NCBI GenBank assembly: GCA_030390025.1
Contig: CM059431.1
Coordinates: 127,598,001-127,662,000, forward strand
Source: Squalus acanthias
Lineage: Eukaryota
Direction: 5' to 3'
Length of the DNA stretch: 64,000 bases
The position numbers and the translations under genes are program-made. The notes beneath the pieces are model-generated. The model was not told where the DNA came from, made no database searches, and saw only the letters and a program-made list of their open reading frames with translations. Shown here piece after piece: positions 1 through 62,102 of this stretch; position 1 is the stretch's first letter, and each line of letters begins with the position of its first letter.

Positions 1-597
1 AGACCAGACAGCTGGCTGGCGAGGCACCGGATGCATTCGTAGACAGGTTGTGGCCCGTGTATCTGAAAGTGTCGGGGGGAAATCTAGCCCGAGCACAGTT
101 GTTAGGGTCTCCCAGGAATCATTGGTTGAGGACCCTAGTGGCTAACAGCCTGCCACGGATCAGGGCCAGGGCGGAATCATGGTTCGACTCCGAGGATGTT
201 AATAATACAGAGCCAGGCATGTTAAGGAAACTGACTCTGGCTTTTAAATCCGACCGATGGGAGGAGAATAAACAAAAGGGAAAAGTGCACGAGATGAAGG
301 GAAGCGTGGATGGTAGAAAAGAATGGAAGCAGGAGTGGGGTAAGGTGGACAGATCCCAGGCGTGCTTTAATTGTGGTAGAATGGGACACTGGAACAGGGA
401 GTGCAAGTTCCCTAAAAGAGAAAAACCAGGATACAGGGGTCCCTCAGGGTCAAAACCGCGGGTAGTAGAGGCGAGGAAGGAGAGGGTAGAAGACCCGGTG
501 GAACTTCTAGTTATGGCAGGTTATGGGCAAAGACCAGGGAAAGCTGGACGCTGCCGTATGCAGTAAAAAGTCCAACACGCCCCCACTTCTCCCATGA
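1..597 (+). pseudogene. gag: Retroviral gag, C-terminal part (nucleocapsid zinc knuckle)
   Basis: ORF 48-566 contains CFNCGRMGHWNREC (CX2CX4HX4C). A probable 1-nt frameshift near 515 leads to TGA 595-597, in frame with the protease. Confidence 0.85.
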
Positions 598-1125
598 CTA
601 GGACGCACCCAGCCCGAGTACCTGTGCCCGCTCACCTATGATGAGTGGCGCAGACCTTGTGTAGAGATCAGGGTAGAGGCCATTCGGGGAAAGTATCTAG
701 TGGACACCGGAGCTTCCAGTACGGTGGTTCACTCACCAAACCCGACCACTTCTCCATGGTCGAGCAGGGTCCCGTTTAAGTTAGTGGGTTTCACAGGGAA
801 CGAGCAGGCTGGGGCGGTATCGAAACCTTTCTCTGTAGGGTTAGGACCCCTTGTCACTAAGTGGGAATGCGTACTGATGCAATGGGATCAGCCCGGCGCG
901 GGGGTCCTCGGAGCTGATTTTATGCTGGCCCACTATGTGATCGTGGAAATGAGAAACCACTGTCTATGGGGGGCAGTTGGTTCAGATAAACCTGAGGAAG
1001 TTCTAGTTATCCCCAAGGCGGAGAAAGTGAAAGGTAGCGCCTATACTATGAAGCCGAAGAGAAGCTATGACTTGGAACATTTGGTCCGTAGCACCCCGGA
1101 AAGATATCGGGGGTGTGAAAATTAA
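598..1125 (+). pseudogene. pro: Retroviral aspartyl protease
   Basis: Open frame from 598: ...RPCVEIRVEAIRGKYLVDTGASSTVV...GVLGADFM (DTG active site and LGxDF motif). Confidence 0.9.
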
Positions 1126-2518
1126 TCCCGCAGTGTTCACCACTCACCGACATGAATGTGGTAGGGTAACGGGGGTAGAGGTGGAGGTACACGGGGACCC
1201 AATGTCGCGACCTCAGAAACAGTATAGTTTTCCCCAGGAAGCAGAGAAGGACATGGAAACTGCACTGAGCTCCCTGGTGGAACAATGGGTACTGAGGCCG
1301 ATAGCGACCCACGTAAATTCACCCCTATGGCCAGTTAAGAAGCCCGATCAATCATGGAGAGCCACGGCAGACTACCGGGTTCTCGATAAAGGTATTCCGG
1401 CATGCGCGCCCACGGTAGCAGCAGTGGCCGATCTAATAGGGAATATCCCTGCGGAGGCAACGACGTTCACTGTATTGGACATAGCTAACGGGTTCTGGTC
1501 TATCCCAGTAAGATGGGAGGATCAGTATAAATTTGCCTTTACATTCAAAGGGCAACAGTATACGTGGACGTGCCTCCCGCAAGGGTTTCATAACAGTCCC
1601 TCGATTTTCCATCAGTGTATGGCTAATGCTTTAAACAATTTCAGTCAGCCTAGCTAGTTGATCCAATACGTGGATAACCTATTATTATTCTCAGAAAGTG
1701 CAGAGGACCACGGGCCACTACTGGACGAGCTACTAAAACTAATACAATAGCAAAATATTGCGGATGCTGGAAATCTGAAATAACAACAGAAAATGCTGGA
1801 AATACTCAGCAGGTCAGGCAGCATCCGTGGAGAGAGAAACAGAGTTAACGTTTCAGGTCTGGGACCCTTCATCATTCTGATCAAGGGTCCCAGACCTGAA
1901 ACGTTAACTCTGTTTCTCTCTCCACGGATGCTGCCTGGCCTGCTGAGTATTTCCAGCATTTTCTGTTGTTATTTGAGCTACTAAAACTGTTGGGGGAGGC
2001 AGGGTTTAAGGCAAACCCCAAGAAAGTCCAAATAGGACAGGAGGTGGTGAAATTATTAGGATTAACAATTAGGGCAGGGGCGAAGAGGAGGGCAGTACAG
2101 AAACTACCCGCCCCAAAGAGTGTAACTGGGGTGAGATCTTTTCTTGGTATGATAGGGTATTGCAGGGATTTTATTGAAGGCTATGCAGCCACGGAAGCCC
2201 CTTTGCTTAGATTCCTTAGGAAAGGAGTAGGATGGGAATGGGATGAGAGTTGTAAGGAGGCATTTACTCGCCTAAAGGAAAATTTACAAACTGCACCCGT
2301 ACTAGGAGCAATAAACGGGAACGAAGATTTTTATCTGGAGGTAGCAGCTACTGGGCATAATTTGAGTGCAGTGTTGCTCCAAGAACGGCATGACAAGTTA
2401 AGGCCAGTGGCTTATGCCTCCCGAGTCCTGACAGATGTAGCGAGGGGTTACTCGAACTGTGAAAGACACCTTTTGGCGAACTATTGGGCCGTCAAACGTT
2501 TCCAATTATTTACAGGGT
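1120..2518 (+). pseudogene. pol: Retroviral reverse transcriptase and first half of the degenerate RNase H (tether)
   Basis: NSPLWPVKKPD, VLDIANGFWS, LPQGFHNSP; catalytic motif reads YVDN (1667-1678) after an in-frame TAG; then RSFLGMIGYCRDFI and LRPVAYASR. Interrupted at 1741-1974 and at 2519. Confidence 0.92.
1741..1974. mobile_element. Palindromic Penelope-like non-autonomous insertion
   Basis: Inverted repeat of about 95 bp around 1875; 14-bp direct repeat GAGCTACTAAAACT at 1727-1740 and 1975-1988; degenerate hammerhead-like cores. Confidence 0.75.
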
Positions 2519-3575
2519 TGTGGCGGATCGCCACCTAAACGAGCGCAATCCACTTTTCCGTCCATTGACAATAAATCGGGCACCTTGCCTTTAAGGCACC
2601 TTGGGGGAGAAATTCAGTATCGCCCCATTTGGGGCGCAATTATCGGCCGGGCGCAAAGATTAGCGCCTGGCGCTAATTATCGCCACCGACTGCAAACTTG
2701 ACTTTTATTGCCCCTGGAGGTGATTAGATTGCTAAATCAGGCGCTTCACACCTGTCTTAAGGCGCAAAGGCCGTGGAGTGAGGCGCTACCTCAGAGCGCT
2801 GGCAAAGCTCATGTGATGTCAGTCAGCAATGGAACACACAAACAATGGCCCGGGCCAGTTCTTAAAGGGGATGGTTAATCTTGCTTTCCATCCACATCCT
2901 GCTCATTGCAGCCTTGAATCTCAGCCTGGAGAGACCTGCACATCAAATGTGCTGGAAAGAACAATGGAGAGTACCAGGCAAAGAGCTCAGAGTGCAGCCC
3001 CCACAGACTCTTCTAAATCGATACAAGGAATGGCAGATCAAAATGAACCTGCAAAGTGCTGCTCAGTACCCAAAACTCCTTCACACAATGTTGAATCTCT
3101 CCAGAAGTCTCTCTCTCTCTCTCTCTCAGAATGCGTCGTTCAAAAATGGCACCAAGAATAAAAGGCAGGAAGCGGTCACCTTTAAATAGCGCTCCCCCTT
3201 TCCCTTCATGACTGCAGAACGCTCCCCTCAACCTGTCGTTGCTAGCGTCAGGCGGTAAGGCAGGGGGCGCCACTCAATTTCCGCTCCGGGGCGTTACCGG
3301 GGCGTTACGCACTCGACTGACGTCACGATCTGCCGGCGCAGGAGATCGTGGCAGTAGTGTTTAGCGCCGCCGCAAAATGTCTAGTTAAGGCGCTAACGGG
3401 AGGCGCAACCAACTGAATTTTCCCCCCTTGCCTTTAAGGCAGGAGAAAAGGAGTGGGCGGGGCCTCGGAACTTCCAGATTCTAGTGTTAGCAGCCATCTT
3501 AGCAAGCAGATGTAATAAAAAGCTTTTGTGTTCCACACATGGTCTCGGCCTTAATTCGTGTTTCGCGGCAGCCAC
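2519..3575 (+). repeat. 5' LTR of the nested Gypsy element (contains MITE-A)
   Basis: Matches 6492-7493 outside the MITE; AATAAA near 3514. Confidence 0.9.
2603..3426 (+). mobile_element. PIF/Harbinger-type MITE, family A, copy 1
   Basis: TIRs GGGGGAGAAATTCAG / CTGAATTTTCCCCC; 3-bp TSD CTT (2600-2602, 3427-3429); homologous to 25579-26479 and 30817-31689. Confidence 0.85.
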
Positions 3576-6471
3576 CGCTACCAATGGGAGTTCATCACTG
3601 CCATGGTGCTCTCGCCTCTCATCGGTGCAGATTTCCTGTGCGCCCACGGCCTACTGGTAGACATCCCTCGACACCGCCTCGTGGACATGAACACCATGTC
3701 CCCCATTCTGGGCGCCATGGCCCCCCGTCAACCCGCCGACATGGCGTCACAGTGCCACGCCCGGGCCACGGATGACTACTCGGCACTCTTGGCCGAATTC
3801 CCGGCCCTTACCAATCCGACCTTCTCTGCGGAGGCCGCCAAACACGGGGTGAAACACTTCATCCCCACCACAGGCCCCCCAGTGTACGCCCACGCCCGCA
3901 GGCTGGACCCCGCCAAACTGGAGATCGCGCGGACCGAGTTTGCCACCATGGAACAGCTCGGCATCATCCGCCGCTCCAACAGTCCCTGGGCCTCCCCACT
4001 CCACATCGCCCCCAAACCAGGCGGGGGTTGGCGCCCCTGCGGGGATTACCGCCGCCTCAACGACGCCACCACCCCTGATCGGTACCCCGTGCCGCACATC
4101 CAGGACTTCTCGGCTAGACTGGCCGGCTGCTCAGTCTTTTCCAAGGTCGACCTGGTGCGCGGCTACCACCAAGTCCCCGTCCACCCCGCGGACGTCCCCA
4201 AGACGGCCGTAATCACCCCCTTCGGCCTTTTCGAGTTCCTGCGGATGCCCTTCGGCCTCAAAAACGCGGCCCAGGCATTCCAACGGCTCATGGACTCGGT
4301 CCTTCGGGACCTGAAGTTCCTGTTCGTCCACCTGGACGACATCCTGGTAGCCAGTTCCTCCAAGCAGGAACACCTCGAACACCTTCGCATCCTGTTCGGG
4401 CGCCTCAGCGACCACGGGCTCATCATCAGCCCAGCCAAATGCCAGTTCGGCCTGGACAAGATCAACTTCCTCGGCCACCACATCACCCATGCTGGGGCCA
4501 TTCCCTGCCCACCAAGGTGCAGGCCGTCCAACAATTTCCACCGCACCACCATCAAAGGCTTCCAGGAGTTCCTCGGGATGGTGAATTTCTACAACCGCTT
4601 CATCCCCAAAGTGGCGTCCCTCATGAGGCCCCTGTATGAAGCCTTCCGGGGCAGGAGCGGCAAGATGGCGGTCGAATGGACGGCAGACGCATCAGCCGCC
4701 TTCGACTCCACCAAGACCGCGCTCGCCAACGCCACCCTGCTCGCGCACCCACGGCCCAATACCAGGGTAGCGCTCACCACGGACGCCTCCGACCACGCGG
4801 TCGGCGCCATGTATGAGCAGTGGGTCGACGGCGCCTGGCAACTACTTGCCTTCTTCAGCCGCCAACTACGCCCCCCGGAGGTCAAGTACAGCACCTTCGA
4901 CCACGAGCTCCTTGCGCTGTTCCTGGCGGTCCGCCATTTTCGTTTTTTGCTGGAGGGCCACCCCTTCACTGCGTTTGTCGACCACAAGCCCCTGACATTC
5001 GCAATGGCAAAGACAACCGACCCCTGGTCCGCCAGGCAGCAGCGCCAGCTCGCGGCAGTGTCCGAGTTCACCACGGACATCCAACACGTCTCCGGCCGAG
5101 ACAATGTGGTAGCTGACTGCCTCTCCCGCCCCGCCATCCATGCCGCACACCTGGCAGTCGACTATGCTCAACTCGCAGCAGACCAGATCACCGACCCTGA
5201 TCTGCTCTCCGCACCTACCAACCTACCAGGGCTACGCCTGGCCGACGTCGCCTGTGGCCCGACCACAGTCATGGTCAAGTACGACATATCCCTACGTCAA
5301 CCTCGGCCCATCGTCCCAGCGTCCTGGCACCGCCGGGTATTCGAGATTCTCCACAACCTCTCCCACCCCGGCACCCGCGCATCCCTCAAATTGGTAGCCA
5401 ACCGCTTTGTCTGGCGCGGCCTTCGCAAGGATGTGCGTACTTGGGCCAACTCCTGCCTAGCTTGCCAACAGGCCAAGGTGAAGAAACACACAAAAGCACC
5501 CCTCAAGGAGTTTACCGTCCCCTCGCGGAGATTCGACCACATCCACGTGGACATCGTTGGGCCGCTGCCGCCGTCGCAAGGCCACACGCACTTGCTGACG
5601 ATCGTTGACCGCACCACGCGCTGGCCCGATGCAATTCCACTGACCTCTACCACCACCGCCGACATCGCCAGAGCCTTCGTCAGCACCTGGGTCGCACGGT
5701 TCGGCGTCCCCTCCGACATGACGTCCGACAGAGGTCCGCAATTTACCTCTGAACTCTGGACCGTCGCACGCAATCTCGGGGTGACCATTCACCGCACCAC
5801 AGCGTACCACCCCCAAGCCAACGGACTGTGTGAGCGATTCCAAAGATCCTTGAAGGTATCTCTTCGAGCCAGCCTCCAAGACGGCGCCTGGACCGACCGA
5901 CTTCCGTGGGTCCTCCTCGGCCTGCGCACCGCGGTTAAAGAAGACCTCCACGCATCGGCAGCAGAGCTCGTGTACGGTCAGCCGCTGCGCGTACCCGGCG
6001 AGTTCCTGCCCACTGCCACGACACCCTGGTCAGCCGACCAGCAACGCCACGACTTCGCCGCACCGCGCTGCAGTTCGCCCCGGTGCCCATTGCCGACACG
6101 GCGAATCCACCTCACACGTCCCACTAAGCCTGCACCAGGCACGGTTCGTTTTCATCCGGCACGACGCCTACCGCGGACCCCTTCAACCCCTGTACGACGG
6201 GCCCTACAAGGTGCTACAGGCTGGGGACAAATTTTTCACCCTGCAAGTGGGCGACAGGACCGAAAAAGTGTCAGTTGACCGACTCAAGCCAGCACACTCG
6301 GAGCCCGGTGAGCAGGTCCCTGTAGCTCGTCCACCGCCATGCGGCCAACCTGCCCTCAAGCCGGTTCACCCGGCTGCTCCACGCCCGGCCGTTCCACGTC
6401 CACTGGCGTCCTACAAGAGCCGCTCCGGCCGGCCCATCAGACCGCCGCACCGTCTTGTCCACACCTCCTAA
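3558..6471 (+). pseudogene. pol: Gypsy pol (protease C-terminus, RT, RNase H, integrase)
   Basis: 906-aa ORF with IGADFL, WASPLH, CGDYRRLN, MPFGLKNA, HLDD (normally YLDD), TDAS, HHCC zinc motif, VDIVGPLP, SDRGPQF, NGLCER. Compensating frameshifts near 4505-4545; integrase tail (VSVDRLKPA) in ORF 6211-6471. Confidence 0.93.
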
Positions 6472-6491
6472 GCGGATTCTGGGGGGAGCTG

Positions 6492-7493
6492 TGTGGCGGA
6501 TCGCCACGGGCGCAATCCACTTTTCCGTCCGTGGACAATAAATCGGGCACCTTGCCTTTAAGGCACCTTGGGGTAAAAATTGAGTCGCGCCCCATTTGGG
6601 GCGCTAACCTCGCCGGGGCGCGACTTTTAGCGCCCCGAAAAAATTAGCGGCCCCGCGCCGGAACTTCAGTGGTTGCGCCCCAAGAGGGAAGCGGGGCGCA
6701 ACTGGAAGCACCCCGCATCCCTCTTGGGGCGCTGCGAGTGAATATCCTGGCGCTACGTGCCGCAGCGCCACGCGCTGCGGCATGTCGCGCCGCGGTATTG
6801 CAGGCCTTCCTCCCCTTCTTAAAGGGGAGGGGCCTTGCGCAGCGCGAACCGGGGCCCAGCTGGGCTCCCAGGGATCGGGAGTGCCGGCAAAAGAGCCCGG
6901 CACTCAAGAGAAGTGCCGGGCTCTTGGAGCGCAGCCGGCACTTCACGGTGGGGGGGCTTCACGGGGGCCGGGGACAGCAACGGGGGCAGGTGCTGGCAGG
7001 CGGCCAGCAACAAAAATGGCCGCCTGCCACCTCCCCTTTAAATATCGCCGCCCCGGCCGCACGTACGCCCCCCTGAACCCGTCGGACATAGCGTCTGGCG
7101 GTAAATCAGGGGGCGCGACTGAAGATCACGGCCGGGGCGCGAGCGGGGCGCTGCGCACGGCGATGACGTCATCGCCGGCGGCGCAGCGCCACAGGGCGCT
7201 ACCGGCTGCCGCCGCCGCTAACCTCCCACTAAATTTTTCGGGAGGCGTGGGCGGCGCTGCGCCCGGGCGTTAGCTGCTTTACGCCCCATTAGCGCCCATT
7301 TAAGGCGCTAACGGGAGGCGCAAGCAGCTGAATTTTTCCCCCCTTGCCTTTAAGGCAGGAGAAAAGGAGTGGGCGGGGCCTCAGAGCCTTCCAGATTCTA
7401 GTGTTAGCAGCCATCTTAGCAAGCAGATGTAATAAAAAGCTTTTGTGTTTCACACATGGTCTCGGCCTTAATTCGTATTTCGCGGCAGCCACA
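6492..7493 (+). repeat. 3' LTR of the nested Gypsy element (contains MITE-B)
   Basis: TGTGGC...GCCACA termini, preceded by PPT; matches the 5' LTR outside the MITE. Confidence 0.9.
6570..7342 (+). mobile_element. PIF/Harbinger-type GC-rich MITE, family B, copy 1
   Basis: TIRs GGGGTAAAAATTGAG / CTGAATTTTTCCCCC; TSD CTT (6567-6569, 7343-7345); homologous to 61388-62102. Confidence 0.85.
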
Positions 7494-8200
7494 ACAGGGT
7501 CATCTTTAATAACCTTACTGACATGTCATACCCTGACACAGATGCTATTGGACGGGAGGATAAAAGATGGGACAGTGAGTAGCAGTCGTATTGCCCGCTG
7601 GACATTGCTACTCTCCCAGATGAACCTGAGGATGGAAAGATTGGCGGAACCTAAGCTGGCCTTGGACATGATTTATCCAGGGATGAATCACATGTGCACG
7701 GTAGAAGGGGTATGGGACGTAGACCTGGGATTCCGGGCCGGGCAACATCCGACAGGGAGAGATATATATGTGGATGGGTCCAACTCGGTGACAAATGGAG
7801 AGCGCAGAACAGCGTGTGGGATTTATGACCCTGGGGCTGGAATAGAATAAAGTCATCAAACTCCCCAGCACACTGAGCGCACAGCAGGCCGAGCTGGCGG
7901 CTGTAGCTTATGTGGTCACACATCCCGAGGAATTCCCAACCCCCTACATAATATGCTCAGACTCGATGTTCACGGGCAATTCTTGCACTGAATATCTGGC
8001 AATATGGGCTAGACGAGGATTCAAGTCCGCCGACAGGGAACCGTTAGTAATCGCTCCACTGCTGAACACAATCCTGGGCGTTACGGGCAATAAAGAGGAG
8101 TATTACATTCAAAAAGTAAAGGCGCACTCAAAAACCGGGCCTAAATGGAAAGGTAACCAGAAGGCCGACGAGTTGGCAAAAAGGGGGCCAGGGAGAGAAT
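7494..8200 (+). pseudogene. pol: ERV pol continued: end of tether plus second, retroviral-type RNase H
   Basis: SSRIARWTLLL, then IYVDGS, SAQQAELAAV, ICSDS, W.RRGF, KVKAHSK, GNQKADELAK; frameshifted. Confidence 0.9.
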
Positions 8201-8416
8201 ACTTTGGGACCCGTACCGAGCTGGACAGATCGTGGCCATAAGGGATATGGAGGGCCCACAGGAGGTGAAGTTGCCCCTAGACCTGACCCAGGTTCAAGCA
8301 CAAGATACGGTTTTGAAAACCGTGATTAAGAAAAGGGTAGAAGGGGAACCAATTGAGGGTCCTTTTGGAGCAGCATATATAGTGGTCAAAGAGGGGATGC
8401 TGTTTAAAGGGGAAAG

Positions 8417-9694
8417 GTGGATCGTGCCCGGGGGGAGTTTATGCAGCTAGCTCACGGGGGTCCGGGAGCTGGACACCCAGGGCTGGAAACTACCTGGAAG
8501 AAAGTGGAAGAGGTGGGTTGGTGGCCTCATCTCAGGGAAGAGGTGAAGGAATATTGCAGTGAGTGCCTAGTGTGCGCTGTGAATAATCCAGACCCCCACC
8601 ATAGAAAGGCACCTTTGGGACACGTTAGGAGGGTAGAGGGACCATGGCATTCTATACAAATAGACTTCATTGGACCCCTGCCCACCACAAAAGCAGGCAA
8701 CAAGTATTGTCTAGTGTTGGTGGACGTTTTTTCTAAGTGGGTTGAGGCCTTCCCTTGTCGAATAGCCAGAGCGTTAAACACGGCTAATATCCGAGTAAGG
8801 GATGTGTTCTCCCAATGGGGATTGCCCCAGGTAGTGGAATCAGATCAGGGGAGCCATTTCACAGGACAAGTCATGCAGACCACCCTGAAACTTTTCGGGA
8901 TACAGGGAAAATGGCATGTGGCCCACAACCCCCAATCATCGGGAATAGTGGAAAGGATGAACCAGACTTTAAAGGAAAGGCTTAGGAAGGAGATAGGGGG
9001 GTACCCAAAGAAATGGGACAAGGTCCTGCCTCTAGTTCTCATGAATATCAGGGCCAGCCTCTCCAAAAGCGCAGGACACTCTCCATATGAGCTGATGGCC
9101 GGTAGGGCGATGAGGACCCCGACTCATGTGTTGGTACCGGTCCAAACCGAAGCTCAAACGAGGGAGATCAACCGGGACAGGTTCGTAAAAGACCTGTATG
9201 AGACCTTGAGGAAAGTACAATGGGAAGCTGCAAATAACATGGGAAGCCAGCACCAGAAGAATAGAATGCTGTTAGAGCCACAGAAAGTACAGGAGTGGAA
9301 GGTAGGGGACCAGGTCATGGTGAGAAACTATGCCCGGGTAGGGGCTTTCGAGCCACTGTACATGGGGCCATACAGTATATTGAACAAGGCAAGTCCTATG
9401 GTTTACGCAGTGCAGCTGCCAAGATGGACAAAGTGGTTCCACATTAATCAATGTAAACTCTATGACCCCGGGAAGAGGGGAATAAAACGAACCAGAGCCC
9501 AGGGAACGATCATGAGTTTGACCAATGTAAGTTTTCCTCCCATGTTGTGGCATGATGATGAAAACCCAGAGAGCGGAGCGGTGAGAAGGAGCAGTCGAAC
9601 ACCCCGACCTAGGGTGCCTTGGACGCCTCCTCGCACACCGACCCCGAGCCGCAAGCGGTCCCAACCGGACAGTAAGGAAAAAGGGACGCTGTGA
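8417..9694 (+). CDS. pol: Retroviral integrase (open 425-aa frame; frameshift at its 5' edge)
   Basis: H..H..CLVC zinc motif, QIDFIGPLP, ESDQGSHF, SGIVERMN (DDE triad), GPY/SH3-like C-terminus and a basic Arg/Pro-rich tail. Confidence 0.9.
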   Translation: MDRARGEFMQLAHGGPGAGHPGLETTWKKVEEVGWWPHLREEVKEYCSECLVCAVNNPDPHHRKAPLGHVRRVEGPWHSIQIDFIGPLPTTKAGNKYCLVLVDVFSKWVEAFPCRIARALNTANIRVRDVFSQWGLPQVVESDQGSHFTGQVMQTTLKLFGIQGKWHVAHNPQSSGIVERMNQTLKERLRKEIGGYPKKWDKVLPLVLMNIRASLSKSAGHSPYELMAGRAMRTPTHVLVPVQTEAQTREINRDRFVKDLYETLRKVQWEAANNMGSQHQKNRMLLEPQKVQEWKVGDQVMVRNYARVGAFEPLYMGPYSILNKASPMVYAVQLPRWTKWFHINQCKLYDPGKRGIKRTRAQGTIMSLTNVSFPPMLWHDDENPESGAVRRSSRTPRPRVPWTPPRTPTPSRKRSQPDSKEKGTL

Positions 9695-9769
9695 TTGCAG
9701 CAATCACAGCATGTATAATATGTATATAACTTAAGTTTGACCTGTGGAGGGAAGACCTCTCACAGAGCA

Positions 9770-9798
9770 TTGCTATTTTTCTTTTCCTTTATTTGCAG
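9770..9798 (+). promoter_or_regulatory. Putative env splice acceptor
   Basis: Long polypyrimidine tract TTTTTCTTTTCCTTTATTTGCAG ending at 9798, 25 nt upstream of the signal-peptide ATG at 9824. Confidence 0.6.
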
Positions 9799-9823
9799 AT
9801 GCGAGTCGAACGGAGGATGCAGG

Positions 9824-12419
9824 ATGGAATGCACTCTGTGGCTGGGCCTGTTGGTAATCCTGATCAGATCAGGACAGATGGAGCGAGGCGACATCGAGAT
9901 GTCATTTACTTCCGGGTGTATGGGAGGAGCCGGGCCCACCGTAACACAGGGAGGTAGAGCACGGGGCACTGACGGGATAGCTACATACTTCCATGAGGGA
10001 GTATGGCCGGGTTGGTTAGGGTCAAATTCCACTAAATATTCCAATTACACTGGTTACAAATTCGGTGAAGCATCAGTGCCCAGCCCCAAATTAAATATCA
10101 CCACCAAAAAGGTACTGGTGAACGAGGGAAGGCAAGTGTGCCTAGAATGCTGGGGAAGTTCCTCTGTGGGATGGTGGTGGTGGCTACAGAAAACAGACAA
10201 GGCAAAGGGTAATGAATCCATGGATTGGGAAAGATTGGGGAACAACTCGTACAGATCGATTGCGGGGACAAAGGGGGGGTGAAATTATGTTGGGACAAGT
10301 GGTGAAAGGAGGAACAAGGGGTTTATGTGTGTGTGGGAGGATCGGAACGTAAATGCCAGAAGCGGGTGTCCATCGCTTTTAAACGGCAATGGCAAGATTC
10401 CGGGTCTGAAATAGGCTGGACTCAGAGTTTCGATTCGTGTGTGGTCACAAATCCTCCAAACGCCGTCAATGCTACCGAACTAGTAGCGCACAATAAGAAA
10501 CCCCTACCATCAGCCCCAAAGACACGGGATAAAGAGGTTAAGTGCCCCATAACGACACCCGGACCTAGGAATGGGTTCATATTGATTCCAACAGGGAAGG
10601 TGTTGTACCATGACGTGCATTATGAGATAGCATCTGTTACCCTTAATTTGGCAAAGGTACGGCTACCCCGGTGGTACCCAGCTGAAACGAAAAAATAGTA
10701 CGAGAAACTATTAAAAGAAATGTGCCGGCAATTCTACGAGTTGAACTATGGGGAAGAAAGTCGTATGGTCCAAAAATGTGCGGGTTAGGTTGATTTGGCT
10801 ATGATAAATTGACCCTTAGTGTTAGGGGGGGATTAAATATGTGGGGTTATGGGGATAGGATAGGAAGGGATATGTTAGGGGGAATTAAATACGTGGGGTT
10901 ACGGGGATAGGGTGGGATATGTGTCGGTGCAGGCTCGATGGGGATTCTGTGTGAGAAAGCAGGGATAGGGTACTGGATTTGGATGATCAGCCATGATCGT
11001 ATTGAATGGTGGAGCAGGCTCGACGGGCCGAATGGCCTACTCCTGCTCCTAGTTTCTATGTTTCTATGTTTCTATGTTTCTATGATTTGTATAAACGCGC
11101 TGACAACAGTCACACCGGTTTGGGGAGACGGAAGAGGAGATTGATCAATGACGCGGCCACGGTGTTTAATACGGGAACGTCACTGGTCAATTGTATAGAT
11201 GATGCCCAGCTGCAAACGCAGGTCAATACCTTACGGGATCAGCTAAAGAGGATACTGGGGGAGGGTAATGAGATTGAGGGACAGGAATTACAAGAAGACC
11301 AAGTAATGACCATGCACCTAAAAGAATTGATAGCTGAGCTGGAAACTCACGCCCAGACCATAAACAACTTCATAAAGGAGGACCGGAACGCGTTGGACCG
11401 GGCCGCGCAAGATGATGCGTGTGTTATGTACGGTGCCTGGTTATTAACCGAGGGGTGTAGTAATTTAGAGGATCTGGAGCAAGGTCGCGTACCATCGTGG
11501 ATTGACAACAGACACCTAAGAGCCTTGAGCACTTATGACAATCTCATGAACCCGTGCCAGCTACGGTTGGCCTCTGAAGCGTACCCAGTCCCAATCATTT
11601 GTGATCAGTACAACCAAACCATAATGGGAATAGTTCTCAGGATGCCAGTGATGGATCAGTCACAACGGTCAGTGCCGGTATATCGGGTGGAAAATGTTGG
11701 TATTATCCGATGTGGGGTATATGTGCGGCATCATGGGGCACCTCCGTATGTGGTTAAGTGGGGGAACTCCATAACCGGCACAGATCTGAAGGGATGTCAG
11801 GAAAGGGGTGCACATGTCGTGTTGTGCCCACATCACCTGAATGTGTTCGACCGACCGGTATGTGGTTTTGAATCTGAAAGCGCACAACCGATCAACTGTA
11901 CCATGGAGGTGATGGTTCAGAGGCACGTCCCAGGTTGTCTATGAGGGAAACGGAACCTACTGTGTCACCACCAGTGTGAATCAGTATAGGGTACACAATG
12001 ATACCTGGTGTCCAATTTACGACTCGACCTTTTGTTTTAAACCCCCGATAGAGGTTCAAGTAGCACAGGAAAGGATAATCCCTATTTCAGATCACACCTC
12101 AGTAAATCTCACAGTGAGTGGTATTTTACCAAACCTCCAAGATTATATATCACATTTTGGGTATGATATCCCACCATTACCTGAGCATTTGACAAAACTG
12201 GTAAAGGATCTGGAGCTTTCCCAAAAACATTACTACACTCTCCAGCAGGAAAACAGAGAAACGCGAGAGGAGATCAGGGAAATGACCACCCCACCTTGGT
12301 GGGACATTGGGTTTGATATTGAAATTCCTCCCTGGATCAGAATTGCCTCACATGTATTGATAATTGTGCAATTAATTATGGTGTTGTATCTGTTCAGGTT
12401 ATCGTGTAAAACAAAATGA
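9824..12419 (+). pseudogene. env: Envelope glycoprotein, class I fusion (F-like) type, with Ig-like N-terminal segment
   Basis: Signal peptide MECTLWLGLLVILI; furin site RRKRR (11126-11140); heptad-like helix; Cys-rich region; C-terminal helix and TM segment WIRIASHVLIIVQLIMVLYLF. Stops, frameshifts and a SINE insertion. Confidence 0.8.
10768..11083 (+). mobile_element. 5'-truncated HE1-like SINE inserted in env
   Basis: Nearly identical to 39055-39340; ends in the CR1-like tail GATCAGCCATGATC...(TTTCTATG)n. Confidence 0.85.
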
Positions 12420-12582
12420 AGGGTAAAAAGGGAAAAACAGGAAAGACTGTATAAAGGGGATTTGGGATTATAGAATCAAATGTATAGAGTGTGTAAAAAA
12501 ATGTGAGATTTGGCTGGGACCGACAATGCACCCCCACCGCAGAAGAATGGACGTAAGTAATATCTCTAATGTAAGAGATAAT

Positions 12583-13323
12583 GGCCCAGAAATTGATCTC
12601 GCTCTGTTCCCGCGGGGGTAAGGAGCAGGCGCGATCTCTCACTCCGCGTTGGCTTTTTCAGATCCAGCTCGCACGAACTTGATGTTCCAGACATCAGCTG
12701 TGCAGTGCTTGCGTATCCCACCGGCGTAGTGAATTCGTGCGAGCTGTGGGATCACGTGACTCAGTTAGAGCCAATGGCAGCACACCATCTTCCATTCATA
12801 AGTTTCACATACGTGCTGTGAAAGCTATGAATCTTACACCCCCCCAAAATAACAGCTAAACCTCAATTAAATTAAAAAAAACACATCACATTAATAAAAT
12901 AAGTATAGTTAAATAAATTAACCATTTTAAATAAAAAATTAAATTTTTGAAAAAATTTAAAATCTTTTAAAAAGTTATAAAAATAAACTTACCTGTCTTT
13001 AAAGTCTCTAAAAAAGATATACCTGTTAAAAAAAATTCAAAAAAATACTTAATTCACTACTTACCTTGTTAAAATTGGGTCTTACTCCTCCTTTTTCCAT
13101 TTCTAAAATCTTCCGTCCTTACCTGCGCGTCCAAAGCACTAAGTGCACAGCGTGCGCGCAGCCTGTAGCGCGCACGCGATGCACCGAGGAACCGCCCCCT
13201 TTTCCAAAGACCAAGTGCCGGTTTTCAGCGCATGCGCAGGGCATGCAGAAAACGGCAATTGGAGAGAGAATACGCGAGAGTACGCAGTGCGTACTCTCGC
13301 GCAGCGGGATCAATTTTTGGCCC
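12583..13323. mobile_element. Harbinger-like MITE with AT-rich core, inserted just before the ERV polypurine tract
   Basis: Imperfect TIRs GGCCCAGAAATTGATC / GATCAATTTTTGGCCC; flanks AAT / ATT. Confidence 0.65.
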
Positions 13324-13338
13324 ATTAAAGGGGGGACA

Positions 13339-14274
13339 TGTAGGATCGATTCTTCCCCCACAATGGTAAAAATATTGGACTATGAAATATAAAAACCCAG
13401 AACTGCAGAGCTGGCAAAAAGTGCTCGGCAATAAATGGTTAATTCAAACATTGCAGCCGAAACTACGAATCTAAAATCTGAACAAGAACATCTGCATATT
13501 CATTTACCTTAAGGGATTACATTGTCCACGTTAGACCATGGCCCCCGAATAACCAGTTTCAGTGCAGGCCTAGACAATGGGCCGGGCCTTGAACCTTTTG
13601 AATACGAATACTAACAGAAACCAACAACTTTGCATATGCAGTCACTTTGGGAAGGTTGCATTGTCAGAAAGGTATCTCTAATCAATGGACAATACCAGGG
13701 ACAATTCACACATTTTGAAATCAATCGTATGCTCAGGAGGGGGCCAGGAAATGTGTGTCAAGATACTGCAAGTTGGTTTTGGTTTAAAGTAAGAGCACTT
13801 CGAAGACAGTGGTGTGGGAAGCCAATGGCAGAACAGCGAACACAAAGATTCGGGCCTACAATCAACTCCAAGAGACAGCCGATCGGGAGTGGTGATTGTA
13901 TGTTTCAGTCAAATCATAGAGGGGGCTTTTATGATTGAGTCTGAGTAAGTTTGTGACTTTCAGTCAGATCACAATAAGGGTTTTGTGATTGAGTTTGGGT
14001 AACTTTATATGTAACAGTCAAATCGCGGACGGGTTTAACTGTCATATTGTGTCGATGCAAATGACCCTTGCGTAAGGGTTTGTATTTTGGGGTTGTTAGT
14101 CTAATATAAATCATAGGGATTTATACTGGGGAAGTAATTGTGTGTGTGTGTTCAATAAACAAACAAATCAAAGGTTGAGCCAAAACCCTGTACCGTGTGT
14201 ATTTTGTTCTTATAAATCCTGATGTCCAAGAACTGTGTGTAATGGGGGACCAGTATCGGGGAAACCCCCTTACA
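13339..14274 (+). repeat. 3' LTR of the ERV
   Basis: Preceded by PPT AAAGGGGGGA (13327-13336); starts TGTAGG, has AATAAA at 14155 and ends CCTTACA; right end inferred because the 5' LTR is not in the window. Confidence 0.65.
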
Positions 14275-25578: not shown

Positions 25579-26479
25579 GGGGGAAAAATTCAGTTGGTTG
25601 CGCCTCCCGTTAGCGCCTTAAGAGGGCGCTAATGGGGCGCAAAGCATCTAGCGCCCAGGCACGGCGAAGTTTGTGCCGCTCGCGAAATTAACTAGACATT
25701 TTGCGGTGGCGCTAAACACTACCGCCACGATCTCTTGCGCCGGCAGATCGTGACGTCAGTCGAGTGCGCAATGCCCCGGTATCGCCCCGGAGCGGATATT
25801 GAGTGGCGCCCCCTGCCTTACCGCCTGACGCTAGCAACGACAGGTTGAGGGGAGCGTTCTGCAGTCATGAAGGGAAAGGAGGAGCGCTATTTAAAGGTGA
25901 CCGCTTCCTGCCTTTTATTGTTGGTGCCATTTTTGAACTACGCATTCTGAGAGAGAGAGAGAGAGAGAGAGAGACTTCTGGAGAGATTCAACATTGTGTG
26001 AAGGAGTTTTGGGTACTGAGCAGCACTTTGCAATTTCATTTTGATTTGCCATTCCTTGTATCGATTTAGAAGAGACTGTGGGGGCTGCACTCTGAGCTCT
26101 TTGCCTGGTACTCTCCATTGTTCTTTCCAGCAGATTTGATGTGCAGGTCTCTCCAGGCCGAGATTCAAGGCTGCAATGAGCAGGATGTGGATGGAAAGCA
26201 AGATTAACCATCCCCTTTAAGAACTGGCCCGTGCCATTGTGTGTGTGTTCCATTGCTGACTGACATCACATGAGCTTCGCCAGCGCTCTGAGGTAGCACC
26301 TCGCTCCTCGGCCTTTGCGACTTAAGACAGGTGTGAAGCGCCTGATTTAGCGCTCCAATCACCTCCAGGGGCGATAAAAGTCAAGTTTGCAGTCGGTGGC
26401 GATAATTAGCGCCAGGCGCTAATCTTTGCGCCCGGCCGATAATTGCGCCCCAAATGGGGCGATACTGAATTTCTCCTCC
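25579..26479 (-). mobile_element. PIF/Harbinger-type MITE, family A, copy 2
   Basis: Reverse complement of 2603-3426; TSD TTG. Confidence 0.88.
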
Positions 26480-30816: not shown

Positions 30817-31689
30817 GGGGGAAAAATTCAGTTGGTTTGCGCCTCCCGTTAGCGCCTTAAGAGGGCGCTAATGGGGCACAAAGCAACTAGCGCCCGGGCG
30901 CGGCGATATCTGCGCCTCTCGCGAAATTGACCGGACATTTTGCAGCGGCACTAAACACTACCGCCACGATCTCCTGCGCTGGCAGATCGTGACGTCAGTC
31001 GAGTGCGCAACGCCCCGGTAGCACCCCGGAGCGGATATTGAGTGGCGCCCCCTGCCTTACCGCCTGCTGCAAGCAACGACAGGTTGAGGGGAGCGTTTTG
31101 CAGTCAGGAAGGGACCGGGAGAGCGCTATTTAAAGGTGAACGCTTCCTACCTTTTTATGTTGGTGACATTTTTGCACCACACATTCTGAGAGAGAGGGAG
31201 AGAGACTTCTGGAGAAATTCAATGCTGTGTGAAGGAGTTTTGGGTACTGAGCAGCACTTTGCAGGTTCATTTTGATTTGCCCTTCCTTGCATCTATTTAG
31301 AAGAGACTGTGGGGGCTGCACTCTGAGCTCTTTCCCTGGTACTCTCCATTGTTCTTTCCAGCAGATTTGATGTACAGGTCTCTCCAGGCCGAGATTCAAG
31401 GCTGCAATGAACAGGATGTGGATGGAGAGCAAGATCAACCCTCCCCTTTAAGAACTGGCCGGCGTCATTGTGTCTGTGTTCCATTGCTGACTGACATCAC
31501 ATTAGATTCACCAGCGCTCTGAGGTAGCGCCTTGCTCCTCGGCCTTTGCACCTTAAGACAGGCTCCAATCACCTCCAGGGGCGATAAAAGCCAAGTTTGC
31601 AGTCAGAGGTGATAATTAACGCCAGGCGCTAAACTTTGCCCACAGCTGATAATTGCGCCCCAAACAGGGCGATACTGAATTTTTCCCCC
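30817..31689 (-). mobile_element. PIF/Harbinger-type MITE, family A, copy 3
   Basis: TIRs GGGGGAAAAATTCAG / CTGAATTTTTCCCCC; TSD AAT. Confidence 0.88.
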
Positions 31690-34516
31690 AATGTGTTTCA
31701 AGAACTGGGAGCCAATGGAGGTCAGCAAGGACAGGTGATGGGAGAAAAAGATTTAGACCTGAATTTTCTGGGGTCCATGTGGGCGCAATGGGGCGCTGGT
31801 CAGGTGGGAAATTTGAAATAAGTTGGAGTGGGTCGGGAACCCGCCATCATCCCACCCCCATTGCGCCTTTCCCTCGGGCACGTTTGCCGGTGCATCAGCA
31901 ATGCGAACGGCAGATGCGGGTGAACTAATTCAAATGATTATCAGCTTGTTGTCAGACTCTTAAGCTCCTTTTTCAGCCTACCTTTCAAATTTCCCTACAT
32001 GACTACAGGCTTCACACAGCTCGGGAACCACCTCTGTCAAACTGAGGCGGGAGTTGAGTGGCCATTGCTCCAGCTGATTAGTTGACAGTATGAAATGTAG
32101 TATAAAAGTTCCCACCTCACAGTTGATCACTTTCCTCAGGCAGAAGCTGTTGCTGACTGCATTCCCCGCACAGATTTAGCTTTCTAGAGGCTGCAAGTGT
32201 TTCCAGCAAAGTCGCCATCCAGTCTCACTTCTTTCGTAGAACCTATCACACCATTGACAGATTGCTTCTGTCGTCACTACTTGGCCTGCCTTCCATTACA
32301 TAAGCGTGGGTGCCATTTATACTGTCTCACCTTGGTCCTCAGAATCGTACCACGATGAGCCCCAACACCAGCAGCACCAACAACAACACCACCAACCTTC
32401 TCCTCATCCACCTGATGCTGCACAGGACAGAGGGCATCAGCGCAGGACTGCACCGCGCAGGAGGTGATACCCCCAACACAGGGTATACAGGCAGAGGATG
32501 AGCTTCATCAACATGACAGGGATGACAGGAATGGCAGGACAGCTCAGTCTAGCGGAGTGCACATCCTGTGGCATGTGGAAAGTCATGGACGCTTCGCGTT
32601 GCATGGAGGACTACATGTGCACTAAGTGTCACCAGTTGCAACGACTCGAGCGACGGTTTACGGAGCTTGAGCGGCAACTGGAGTCACTGTGGTGCATCCG
32701 CGAGGCTGAGAACTACATGGATAGCACATTTAGTGAGGTGGTCACCCCGCAGCCTAAGAGAGTGTGGACAGAGAGCAAGTGGGTGACCACCAGACAGAAG
32801 AAGACCAGGCAGGCAGTGCAGGAGGCCCCGGAGGGCATCTCGCTCTCCAACCGGTATTCTATTCTGAGTACTGGTGGGGGCGATGGTCCCTCTGATGAGT
32901 GCAGTCAGAGCCAAGTCCTCAGCAGCACGGGTGGCTCCGCTGCACAGGGGGGGAGGAAAAATAGTGGAAGAGCAATATTGGTAGGGGATTCAATAGTGAG
33001 GGGAGCAGACAGGTATTTCTGCGCCGCAGTCGTGACTCCAGGATGGTATGTTGCTTCCCTGGTGCCAGGGTCAAGGATGCCATCGAACGACTGCAGAGCA
33101 TTCTGGGGGGGAGAGGGTGAACAACCAGATGTCGTGGTCCATATCGATACCAATGACATAGGTAGAAAGAGGGATGAGGTCCCGCAGGCAGAGTTTAGGG
33201 AGCTAGGAGTCAGATTAAAAAACAGGACCTCAAAAGCAGTAGTCTCTGGATTACTCCCGGTGCCACGTGCTAGTGAGTCAAGAAATAGGAGGATAGAGCA
33301 GATGAATGCGTGGCTGGAAGGATGGTGCAGGAGGGAGGGCTTTAGATTCCTGAGACATTGGGACCATTTCTGGGGGAGATGGGACCTGTATAAGCCGGAC
33401 AGGTTGCCCCTCAACATAGCCGGGACCAATATCCTCACCGGAGGGGTGGGGGGGGGGGCGGGGGCGGGTGTAGGGTGTTTTTGCGTGTCCCGTGTTTCTA
33501 TGACTCTCCCTTGAGTCGACCCGTGCCACAAAAACTCCCCGGTTTGGGTTGTTTCCCTTGGACGGCAGGAGCTTACAACAATAGTCCCTGCCCAGCCCGT
33601 CGATTAGCGGGTTATCCCACAGAGAGAGAGAGACCAAGGCCAGATAGGTCTTCTCCTATGCCCGATGCGCAGCGTCCCCAGCGGGATTACTGTGTAACCC
33701 GGCCGTGACCGGATGCCACCCGGTTGGTCTTCCGAATTATACCGCGAACCACAAGCCCCACAACCCCCAAGTTCGGACCCAAGGAGTTACTATGGATAGA
33801 TTATAAATGATTCAGACAAAATGAAACGGTTCAGGTTGGTCAAAGATCAATTCCTTTTATTACTCTCACAAAAACGACAATCCCTACTCCTCTCGCTTAC
33901 GGCAGAACGAGGAGGTGACCGTGGACACTAGCTTATAACTTTAGACTAAAATACGCCCGAACCAACCCCTTCCCAGAATCTAAGCCTAGATAATGGAAAA
34001 ACCCTTCTAACTAAACCCCTCTCCCGGTTTGGTCAGAACCCACACTTGGAAGCCTCCTCACACACACACACATGCTAGCCTGCGTCTTGGACACTTGCAG
34101 TTCCTCAGCAGCCAAACACGCGGGCGGTCCTGGGGATTTCTTGAGGTGTATGCTGGATATAATTACCAGCGCTTGTCGTTGATTCACGCGGTCCCGGCTC
34201 CATTCGAATCCAGAGATAAAACCGAGCCTAACAGAGGCATGCGATGAGGCCTAGAGCGTTACGTTCAGACGGTACGACAAGGCACTCACTTCGGGCGTTC
34301 CTGGAGAGTTGACGGACGCGTGGTTATGTGGAGAACCCCGTTATAGATGGTAGAGAAAAGCAAGCAAGCAAGCATCCCCAAAGTTCAGCATGTTTATACC
34401 CCGCGCAATACACAAAACTTGCTGGGCGATTCCTGGTTACCATGGTCGCAGAGATGCTAGTTGGCCTTCCTGGTGATGTCTTTGTCCTGGATTAGTCATC
34501 ATGAAGAAAACAATGG

Positions 34517-34735
34517 AAAAACTCAGCAGGCCAGGCAGCATCCGTGGAGAGAGAAACATAGTTAACGTTTCAGGTCGAAGACCTTTCGTCAGAACTCCCA
34601 GTTCTGATGAAAGGTCTTCGACCTGAAACGTTAACTCTGTTTCTCTCTCCACGGATGCTGCCTGGCCTGCTGAGTTTTTCCAGCATTTTCTGCTGTTATT
34701 TCGGATTTCCAGCATCCGCAGTATTTTGCTATTGT
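34517..34735. mobile_element. Palindromic Penelope-like insertion (same family as 1741-1974)
   Basis: Inverted repeat centred near 34597; 15-bp TSD TGAAGAAAACAATGG (34502-34516, 34736-34750). Confidence 0.82.
34600..34636 (+). ncRNA. Minimal type I hammerhead ribozyme motif (mirror copy on - at about 34559-34596)
   Basis: AGTT-CTGATGA-A-AGGTC ttc GACCT-GAAA-CGTT-AACT; the minus-strand copy has CTGACGA. Confidence 0.75.
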
Positions 34736-38901: not shown

Positions 38902-39340
38902 GGGCAACATGGTGGCATAGTGGTTAGCACTGGTGCCTCACAGCGCCAGGGACCCGGGTTCGAATCTGACCTCGGGTGACTGTCTGTGTGGAGTTTGCAC
39001 ATTCTCCCCATGTCTGCGTGGGTTTCCTCCGGGTGCTCCGGTTTCCTCCCACAGTCCAAAAATGTGCGGGTTAGGTTGATTTGGCTATGATAAATTGACC
39101 CTTAGTGTTAGGGGGGGATTAAATATGTGGGGTTATGGGGATAGGATGGGATATGTTAGGGGGAATTAAATACATGGGGTTGCGGGGGTAGGGTGGGATA
39201 TGTGTACTGTGGGGATTAAAGCAGGGACAGGGTACTGGATTTGGATGATCAGCCATGATCGTATTGAATGGTGGAGCAGGCTCGACGGGCCGCATGGCCT
39301 ACTCCTGCTCCTAGATTCTATGTTTCTATGTTTCTATGTT
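38902..39340 (+). mobile_element. Full-length HE1-like tRNA-derived SINE (V-SINE type)
   Basis: A box TGGCATAGTGG, B box GGTTCGAATC, V-SINE core TGTGTGGAGTTTGCACATTCTCCCC..., CR1-derived tail (TTTCTATG)n. Confidence 0.88.
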
Positions 39341-59841: not shown

Positions 59842-61387
59842 TTTGGCTGGAATTTTCACTTCAGAGTTGGGCCGGGAACGCGATGTGTTGATCAGCCCGC
59901 TCCTCAGTACAACGTTAACATAATGGCCCCAATTAAATCAGCCATGCACGTTTCCTGGCCCGATTAAAGGGTGCAGGTCTGATGACATCATCGTTGACTC
60001 ATTTCCAGCGCCCATATTTAAAGCAGCCTTGCACACAACTCATTTGAAGTTTGGTAAAGGAGTGTGGAAGCATCATTTTAAAGGTTGGATTTATTTTGCA
60101 AACGTAAAAACATGAATACCCAACAGCAGAGGGCCACACCCTGGTTTACAGATGCCTCGCTGCATATTCTGGTGGAGGCAGTACGAGCACGCAGGGAGGT
60201 CCTCTTCCCAGCAGATGGGCATGAGAGATCTCCCCAAGAGACGAAAAAGGCCTGGCTGGAAATAGCAGAGGAGGTCAGCAGCAGGGAGGTCATGAGGAGG
60301 ACTTGGATCCAGTGAAGGAAGAGATTCAGTGATCTGATGAGGTCAGGAAAGTTGAGTGCCAAGCCACCCTCGCCTTCATCCTGATGTTCATGTCACTACA
60401 TCCCCATCACTCTGTCTTCCCAAGCCTACTCCTGCACATCATTCCTCACACCAACATACCTTTCAGGTCCACCCATCCCTTTTTATGTACATACTCACAT
60501 CCCAATCTGACTAACCACCCCTCACACTCACACCCATCCAAAAGCAATTATAGCAAGTAACAGCACAGAAAGGAGGATACATGCAGGTTCATCGTCCTAT
60601 GGTTGCAGACAAGCTGCACATTGAGGAAGTGGAAGCCCTTGCAGTTAACAAAGACTCCTGGGTGATGGCCACATGTGTGAAGTCAATGGCGCCCTGCACC
60701 TGTGGGAAGCCAGCCAGAGCTGCAAAGCCAAGCGCCCGCTCAGTAACACTGGCTTCATCACTGGCAAAGTTCACATAATTGGCTGGATTGTTAAACATGG
60801 CATCCGTGAGCTGGGTGATTCAGCTGTGGGCGGCCGACTGCGAGATGCCACAAATGTCTGCTGCAGATCCCTGGAAGGAGCCTGAGGCGAAGAAGTTGAG
60901 GGTGCTGGTGACCTTGACAGGTCCACCAGGACCTCTGGGCAGCAGGTCTTGCTCCAGTAAGCTGCAAATGTCTGCGATGACCTGGCGCGATAGCCTGAGC
61001 CTCCTTTGGAACTGTGCCTCAGTCATGTTGAGGAAGCTTATCCTCTGCCTGTAAGCCCTGTGTTGGGGCTTTTGCCTCCTGCGCGGTGCAGCACTGCGCT
61101 GATCCCCTCTCTCCTGTGGAGCATCAGGTCATTGAGGAGAAGGCTGGCGTTGTGGTTGCTGCTGCTGCTGGTGTGACTGTTCTGCTGGTGGTGGGGTTCA
61201 TCTCGGTCCTATTCTGAGGACCAAGGTGAGACAGTATAAGCGGCACCCATGCTGATGTCATAGATGGCAGGTCAAGTCGCGATCTGAGCGCCAATCCCTC
61301 AATGTTCTAACAATGACTAGCAATGTGTTGAGAGTGGTTTCTGAGGTTGCAAAAATGACCTGCAAACTGCAGAAACTAAGACGTTTG

Positions 61388-62102
61388 GGGGGAAAAATTC
61401 AGTTGCTTTGCACCTCCCATTAGCGCCCTAATAGCGCCCGGGGGCGGCACCGCCAACGCCTCCCGCGAAATACAGCGCGAAGGTTAGCGGCGGCGGTAAC
61501 TGTTAGCGCGGCGCTGCGCCGCCAGTGATGATGTCATCGCTGTACGCAGCACCCCGCTCGCGCCCTGGCCGCGATCTTCAGTAGCGCCCCCTGACTTATC
61601 GGCGGATGCTATGTCCAACGGGGTCAGGGGGGTCTACCTGCGGCCAGGGCAGCGCTATTTAAAGGCGAGGTGCCGGGAGGCCATTTTTGTTGCTGGCCGC
61701 CTGCCAGCACCTGCCTCCGCTAACGTCCCTGGCCTCCTGAGCAACCCCCACCCACCCCCCCACAGCGGAGTGCCGGCTGTGCTCCATGAGCCCGACACTT
61801 CTCTTGAGTGCCGAGCTCTTTTGCCGGCACTCCGACCCTGGTGGCCCAGCTGGGCCCTGAGTCGCGCTGCGCAAGGCCCCTCCCCTTTAAGAAGGGGAGG
61901 AAGGGCTGCAATACTGCGGCACGTAGCGCCGCGATATTCCCTCGTAGCGCCCCAAGAGGGAGGCGGGGCGCTTCCAGTAGCGCCCCGCTTTCCTCTTGGG
62001 GTGCTACCACTTAATTTCGGCCGCGGGGACACTAATTTTCTCGGGGCGCAAAACCCCGGCGAAGTTAGCGCCCCAAAGAGGGCGCGACTCAATTTTTCCC
62101 CC
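61388..62102 (-). mobile_element. PIF/Harbinger-type MITE, family B, copy 2
   Basis: Reverse complement homologue of 6570-7342; flanks TTG / TTA do not match. Confidence 0.82.

Follow-up and report, generated by a model that had tools for sequence, protein, structure and literature searches.

The first 14,274 positions of the 64,000-nucleotide stretch of DNA analysed here (contig CM059431.1, positions 127,598,001 to 127,662,000; the whole stretch is referred to as the window) are occupied by an endogenous retrovirus (ERV). With good confidence it can be described as a dead though complete provirus belonging to a large family of elasmobranch ERVs (the shark family) which lies on the canonical side of the retroviruses, nearest to snakehead retrovirus and class III/clade Huo, and which carries an F-type envelope protein (Env) homologous to that of the lokiretroviruses (Loki). 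An earlier note, made from the letters alone, had read the element as a lokiretrovirus-like lineage. It had listed gag with a CCHC motif, protease (PR), reverse transcriptase (RT), two RNase H-like domains, integrase (IN) and env, and each of these was confirmed where it had been placed. Positions below are those of the window, 1 to 14274, unless prefixed; G000 denotes the source genome and C1, C7 and C11 its contigs. The features are as follows, with long terminal repeat abbreviated as LTR, transmembrane segment as TM, target site duplication as TSD and polypurine tract as PPT.

1-597, plus strand: 3' portion of gag, including a CCHC zinc knuckle; frameshift in the tail; TGA at 595-597 in frame with pro, context TGA-CTA-G
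598-1125, plus strand: retroviral aspartic protease (DTGA); PF00077, E 2.6e-4; 48% identical to P0060
1124-1740, plus strand: RT core; one in-frame stop; YVDN replaces YVDD
1741-1974, no strand: hairpin-forming repeat of 234 bp inserted in RT; 14-bp duplication on either side; second copy at 34505-34735
1975-2518, plus strand: RT thumb, followed by the beginning of the tether (a degenerate RNase H); PF17919, E 4e-24
2519-7493, plus strand: nested Gypsy LTR retrotransposon of about 5 kb in the tether; own pol at 3555-6278; 6-7 bp duplication at the flanks
7494-8241, plus strand: end of the tether and second, cellular-type RNase H; PF00075, E 1e-13 (7846-8238); interrupted by a stop/frameshift
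8408-9694, plus strand: integrase (H2C2, core, SH3-like C-terminus); domain match E 5e-13
9770-9798, plus strand: polypyrimidine tract with CAG end; candidate splice acceptor of the env mRNA
9824-10750, plus strand: N-terminal part of env with predicted signal peptide, possible Ig-like head, F2-like strand and helix; head interrupted by frameshift and stops
10751-11083, no strand: insertion in env resembling a short interspersed element (SINE-like), with tandem-repeat tail; 90% copy at 39054-39340
11084-12419, plus strand: env with cleavage site RRKRR at 11126-11140 and, behind it, about 425 codons of an F1-like subunit; frameshift near 11932
12583-13323, no strand: insertion with inverted termini, resembling a miniature inverted-repeat transposable element (MITE-like), between env and PPT, delimited by its junction sequences
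13327-13338, plus strand: polypurine tract
13339-14274, plus strand: 3' LTR of 936 bp, TGTA...TACA; AATAAA at 14154; 4-bp TSD

The zinc knuckle (zf-CCHC) was matched in reading frame 3-563 (E 7e-6) and the RT domain in reading frame 1052-1738 (E 5e-24), and one natural Pol, P0060, matches PR, RT, tether/RNase H and IN of the window in order. Some 430 codons had been counted after the cleavage site RRKRR, and this was confirmed as about 425 codons reaching 12416 across one frameshift, in the order fusion peptide, long helix, Cys-rich block, second helix and a hydrophobic TM stretch at the end. The start of env, formerly set at 10500, was moved upstream to near 9824, where the predicted signal peptide and putative Ig-like head lie. 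The provirus is interrupted by four insertions, namely the hairpin repeat, the Gypsy element, the SINE-like repeat and the element with inverted termini. The Gypsy element is unrelated to the retrovirus, its own pol grouping with the Gypsy outgroup in trees 2 and 3 described below. Because of the YVDN replacement, the stops, the frameshifts and the insertions, this copy is dead.

The partner 5' LTR was found just upstream of the window, at G000:C7:127595299-127596885. The two LTRs are 96% identical (Kimura two-parameter distance 0.037 over 942 columns) with a common 4-bp TSD, and 4-bp duplications were also seen at three of the five other LTR loci examined. With substitution rates taken from those given by Han (PMC4422223), the LTR-based age runs from 8 million years (mammal rate) to 84 million years (assumed shark rate), so that the age of the provirus is poorly bounded. 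After the 5' LTR, a stretch at L129:1887-1915 resembles a shortened CmiERV lineage I primer site. In the 3.71-Gb genome, at least 150 RT matches at 81% identity or more and at least 136 env matches were detected, and the family is large in this genome. RT and env matches also stand in order on one strand, 4-9 kb apart, elsewhere in the genome, with about 15 such loci found by eye among the matches listed; because this linkage is repeated and the LTRs are paired with a TSD, pol and env are taken to form one provirus. Among the matches listed there are also many RT copies near-identical to one another at 83% identity to the window, which suggest a younger, recently expanded sister family.

The nearest IN proteins come from Heptranchias perlo (71%) and Scyliorhinus torazame (69%), the top two of 37 matches. 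A search of 1.84 billion representative proteins gave 22 Env homologues; 16 of these were looked up and 15 were named, all 15 coming from sharks or a skate (seven species). Since the named IN and Env homologues come from these animals, an elasmobranch host is very likely, as the earlier note had supposed from HE1-like SINEs.

For the placement of the RT, reference viruses were chosen by motif: L032 holds the snakehead retrovirus RT as printed in the supplement of Wang and Han, L036 and L038 were taken as Loki by their RT wording and L029 as walleye dermal sarcoma virus (WDSV) by length and motif. The RT core scored 44% and 170 bits with snakehead retrovirus, the best of the reference viruses, 36% and 128 bits with Loki and 124 bits with foamy virus. 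Tree 1 (28 of 47 rows, redundant foamy, gamma and delta rows being dropped) joined the window to P0060 with support of 100/99 and grouped the non-Loki retroviruses, including the shark family, at 91/91. Tree 2 (38 of 129 rows, RT plus thumb, with P0060 as proxy for the window) separated Loki (100/100) from all other retroviruses including the proxy (98/93). Tree 3 (26 rows) again held the non-Loki retroviruses and the shark family together (94/88), and a true Loki remnant of the same genome, serving as positive control, joined Loki at 100/99. In trees 1 to 3 the foamy rows formed a clade without the shark family (98/100, 100/100 and 100/99); fish foamy-like ERVs were compared with the window RT by eye only. 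Within Retroviridae, the RT also fell outside the gamma/epsilon and class II clades in trees 2 and 3. In its wording, the window has PTVAA and LPQGFHNSP, as in the snakehead row, and lacks the PLSxWP and NRCPFGYxNSP seen for Loki in the published alignments (PMC7947760). The window RT is thus firmly outside the Loki clade, and a sister position to Loki is only marginally rejected. The phylogeny that the earlier note had proposed places this RT outside Loki, foamy and Gypsy, and its lokiretrovirus-like lineage was not borne out. The position outside the foamy clade does not fit a spumavirus (clade Tu). Nor does a Gypsy/Metaviridae element with env fit: the RT does not group with Gypsy, and a tether and second RNase H are present in place of a single RNase H.

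A 138-aa RT fragment of the little skate, le_er_ERV4, published in the S2 Data of Xu et al. (2018; PMC6001957), agrees with the window at some 111 positions out of 138, counted by hand (about 80%), and represents the same or a sister family. As regards RT, the family was therefore already catalogued, one of the outcomes that the earlier note had named as refuting its reading; the entry there is the RT fragment alone, with no env, LTR or gag seen. Snakehead retrovirus, Ca_mi_ERV1, La_ch_ERV4 and Rh_ty_ERV2 stand under the clade Huo part of the figure in the same paper, le_er_ERV4 being absent from the text of its S2 Fig, and snakehead-like ERVs have been described in chondrichthyans (PMC4422223; PMC6001957). 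On its sequence the shark family appears best placed in clade Huo/class III, with CmiERV lineage I, La_ch_ERV4 and Rh_ty_ERV2 as kin for comparison. None of 25 candidate close RT relatives in viral contigs was confirmed, and the Loki motif had no match in these contigs; three of five metagenome motif matches were unrelated.

In snakehead retrovirus, too, Gag carries a CCHC motif and gag is separated from pro by an in-frame stop. The two genes lie in one frame with a single stop between them, differing in context (UGA-CUA in the window, UAG-GGC in L032); as the gag tail of the window is frameshifted, this reading is drawn from the last 18 codons. UGA CUA is among the type II readthrough contexts listed in PMC13517186. 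The overall order LTR-gag-pol-env-LTR with tether and RNase H is found in Loki too, and is common to all retroviruses and not diagnostic.

The earlier note had also remarked on the absence of the CX6CC and immunosuppressive domain (ISD) motifs. Both are missing from all four env pieces, while each of 14 gamma/delta control Envs tested has CX6CC; with the long subunit after cleavage, this does not fit a gamma-type Env. Post-cleavage lengths are about 425 residues in the window, 512 in snakehead retrovirus, 423 in foamy virus, 446 in Loki and 178 in gammaretroviruses. A long subunit after cleavage is thus not Loki-specific. When the piece encoded at 11084-11941 was compared with 34 reference Envs, two Loki Envs scored 28.2 and 25.3 bits and the next best 4.2. 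A 16-row profile of the shark Env family reached Loki at 38-40 bits (best shuffle 1.4), one foamy Env at 13 bits (shuffles up to 8.7) and snakehead at 3.5 bits, which is not significant. Starting at the cleavage site, shark and Loki Env align colinearly up to and including the Cys-rich block; identity between the two Envs is 19%. In hhalign, the shark profile gave 96% with Loki, 85% with WDSV, 62% with foamy, 49% with snakehead and 11% with gamma/delta Envs; column-shuffled controls stayed below 1%, as did four F-type references against one another. By these sequence comparisons the shark Env shares homology with that of Loki and, at a greater distance, with the Envs of WDSV, foamy virus and snakehead retrovirus. 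Of 21 listed sequencing runs, 20 contain part of the env stretch, under 8 organism codes, and no RNA run is listed among them; this was given no weight as evidence. The Envs of L032 and L029 were themselves seen to lack CX6CC and to have F-type links. A second, distinct Huo-type family was noted at L131 (G000:C11:6531000-6537500), with a Pol 49% identical to P0060 and an Env of the P0041 subfamily; since L131 carries the same Env type, the F-type env is not confined to one family.

The F-type nature of the Env, first proposed in the earlier note, agrees with this profile homology, with a language-model search that returned Fusion_gly clusters at 0.94 and with fold matches of P0052, a full-length Env homologue 21-28% identical to the window pieces. 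Among the PDB matches listed, to E 1e-3, the P0052 model matched only paramyxovirus/pneumovirus F and foamy Env (PDB 8RM0, 8RM1, 1ZTM and 6APB), for which the search predicts the same F-type core, and in BFVD it matched WDSV, walleye epidermal hyperplasia virus (WEHV) and baculovirus F. Compared with complete F ectodomains, the model aligns over residues 189-603, with Z scores as high as 7.5 and a high rmsd. Loki Env and the shark Env have in common a signal peptide, an RXKR site, a fusion peptide, a coiled coil, a TM and a likeness to the F proteins of Mononegavirales. Sequence and modelled fold thus support a class I fusogen of paramyxovirus/pneumovirus F type. Foamy Env was already known to be F-like (PMC11468914); foamy virus differs in its RT clade (100/100) and its Env is similar at profile level only. 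An additional Ig-like head at the N-terminus of the shark Env is suggested by weak but concordant leads: the skate homologue falls with Ig clusters of the Atlas (0.91-0.92), the window Env meets Pfam Ig_3 at E 0.09 and the N-terminus of snakehead Env meets perlecan Ig at E 0.08. The latter Env shares with the window a long subunit without CX6CC and a weak Ig-like signal, its sequence similarity being weak. P0052 itself (GCC29952.1, Chiloscyllium punctatum) is an unbroken 739-aa open reading frame of the shark Env family on a 2.8-Mb scaffold, carries an Ig-like label in UniProt and is a candidate host-retained env gene.

A number of results weigh against the classification and the fold given above. 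For a union with Loki, approximately unbiased (AU) tests returned p values of 0.092 and 0.074 (tree 1), 0.059 (tree 2) and 0.039 (tree 3), so that this union is rejected marginally or, with three of four values above 0.05, not at all. The pairing of snakehead with the shark family reached an SH-aLRT support of 88 in a quick tree only and is not resolved by the careful trees, which sample Loki by two reference rows and do not include Odin, ERV-L or fish foamy-like ones. The tether scores 133 bits with Loki and 69 with snakehead, and IN 243 and 126 bits, so that both are nearer to Loki, with IN trees that do not resolve (AU 0.32); the top IN homologues are named NYNRIN-like, the Loki IN score is high and those trees had no CGIN1 row. 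The P0052 model is of low confidence (mean predicted local distance difference test, pLDDT, 52; TM score 0.2; Z 7.5 at an rmsd of 16). The 286-aa Env piece of the window folded poorly (pLDDT 55) and met generic coiled coils only, so the structure searches suggested by the earlier note led to viral F for the homologue and not for the window itself. The Pfam family Fusion_gly did not match the shark Envs, and Pfam and PDB sequence searches with the window Env pieces and the 22 homologues found no fusion-protein family; the Env profile reached F0 in the PDB at E 1.9 only, and a word-index search of longer proteins, with the Env piece as query, confirmed none of 1107 candidates. The position of the shark Env as a hub in hhalign may derive in part from its profile being the most diverse.

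A search of the genome with Loki RT returned one outlier, at G000:C1:97388010-97388453 (51%, five stops). This outlier, which lies in L130:2357-5068 (G000:C1:97386856-97389567), scored 178 bits with Loki Pol and 62 with snakehead, its wording is nearly that of the coelacanth Loki row and its RT is the control that joined Loki in tree 3. Judged by its sequence, L130 is a very decayed pol remnant of a true lokiretrovirus; contamination is an unlikely source, the decayed piece lying on a 266-Mb contig. Short pieces at L133, L134 and L135 were matched by Loki Pol only, among 11 queries (E 1e-9 to 1e-14), and are probably further Loki remnants. A Loki Env query gave two matches in the genome, both at Env sites of the shark family, and no Loki env remnant. 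Loki is defined by RT, and 0 of 6 chondrichthyan genomes were scored positive in Wang and Han (2021; PMC7947760); the decayed pol would fill this one fish class. The extension of the Loki host range to elasmobranchs, put forward in the earlier note for the provirus of the window, does not apply to that provirus and appears real at L130 in the same genome.

The live virus would have made Gag, and Gag-Pol by readthrough of UGA, with Env translated from a spliced RNA. Furin is expected to have cut at RRKRR, leaving an outer part with the Ig-like head, probably used for receptor binding, and a membrane-anchored F1-like part which, by homology of its fold, is predicted to refold and fuse membranes. 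After integration, at an LTR divergence of 3.7% today, the four insertions, the stops and the frameshifts accumulated.

What appears new is an Env homologous to that of Loki on a canonical-side shark ERV, the RT family, the chondrichthyan snakehead-like ERVs and the F-like foamy Env being already known. Searches of open-access literature, as distinct from subscription papers and repeat databases, turned up neither a clade Huo ERV with such an Env nor a report of Loki from sharks. Since a canonical-side shark ERV carries one, the F-type env is no marker for Loki. Wang and Han stated that similarity between Loki Env and canonical retroviral Env is neither significant nor detectable (PMC7947760; PMC9040795), and four scenarios for the origin of retroviral env were left open by them (PMC7947760). 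With a shark Env that aligns with Loki and a profile that reaches WDSV, foamy and snakehead, this question becomes testable by a single alignment, and the likeness points to an old common origin of retroviral envelopes. The likeliest reason, held with somewhat better than even confidence, is that the F-type Env is ancestral for retroviruses and Loki and is best kept in slowly evolving shark copies. A wider history is about as probable as not, in which the ancestor of Loki and retroviruses had an F-type Env, the shark Huo ERVs are the least-changed descendants and a first bridge between Loki, snakehead, walleye epsilon and foamy viruses, gamma and beta Envs are later replacements, and Loki infected cartilaginous fishes (L130).

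A recombinant origin is possible but clearly less probable: a clade Huo retrovirus would have taken env, and perhaps tether and IN, from a lokiretrovirus in a co-infected fish, which leaves the classification as it is and changes the history. Among the Envs from outside the family, that of Loki is the closest by a wide margin, Loki did infect the host lineage according to L130, recombination between env and pol has been described as frequent (10.1101/2021.11.23.469661), and the snakehead-like CmiERV (lineage I) of elephant shark differs from the shark family in its gamma-type env, with ISD and CX6CC seen by eye in the supplement of PMC4422223. Against such a transfer stand an identity to Loki Env of just 19%, snakehead, WDSV and foamy Envs that are F-like too, Loki-like IN scores reaching coelacanth relatives and an Ig-like head which, on the leads above, is common to shark and snakehead Env and absent from Loki Env.

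It is unlikely that the family represents a separate early lineage between Loki/Odin and the remaining retroviruses, outside clade Huo. Its basal place, not settled further among the non-Loki retroviruses in trees 2 and 3, and its Loki-like tether, IN and Env would suit such a lineage; the limits of clade Huo are also soft, because a lamprey element put there by Xu et al. (2018; PMC6001957) was later reclassified as Loki. Against this, the RT agrees in wording and in scores with snakehead retrovirus and with the coelacanth and elephant-shark Huo elements, and the quick tree groups the family with snakehead/Huo. A true lokiretrovirus is very improbable and already largely refuted: the Env homology, the dual RNase H, the tether and IN scores with NYNRIN-like IN names and the three AU values above 0.05 speak for it, but the RT is excluded from Loki in three trees with LPQGFHNSP in place of NRCPFGY, the CCHC Gag and in-frame gag-pro stop are those of snakehead retrovirus, the putative Ig-like head is extra, and the bona fide Loki remnant of the same genome behaves quite differently in tree 3. 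A chance mosaic of pol and env from two unrelated elements, which the heavy nesting of the region and the differing domain affinities might suggest, can hardly be entertained given the matching LTR pair with TSD, the RT-env linkage at the other loci and the same Env type in L131.

The remainder of the window (14300-64000) consists of repeat remains with no host gene seen; RT fragments of CR1/L2 type are among them, and pieces of a Harbinger-type transposase and Myb-like ones were recognised by eye. An Rfam scan of the 64-kb window gave zero matches, so the SINE-like repeat receives no name from Rfam. It should also be noted that both LTRs of the nested Gypsy element carry a MITE-like insert at nearly the same place, the two inserts being different; copies lie at 25688-26479, 30934-31695 and 61387-62102.

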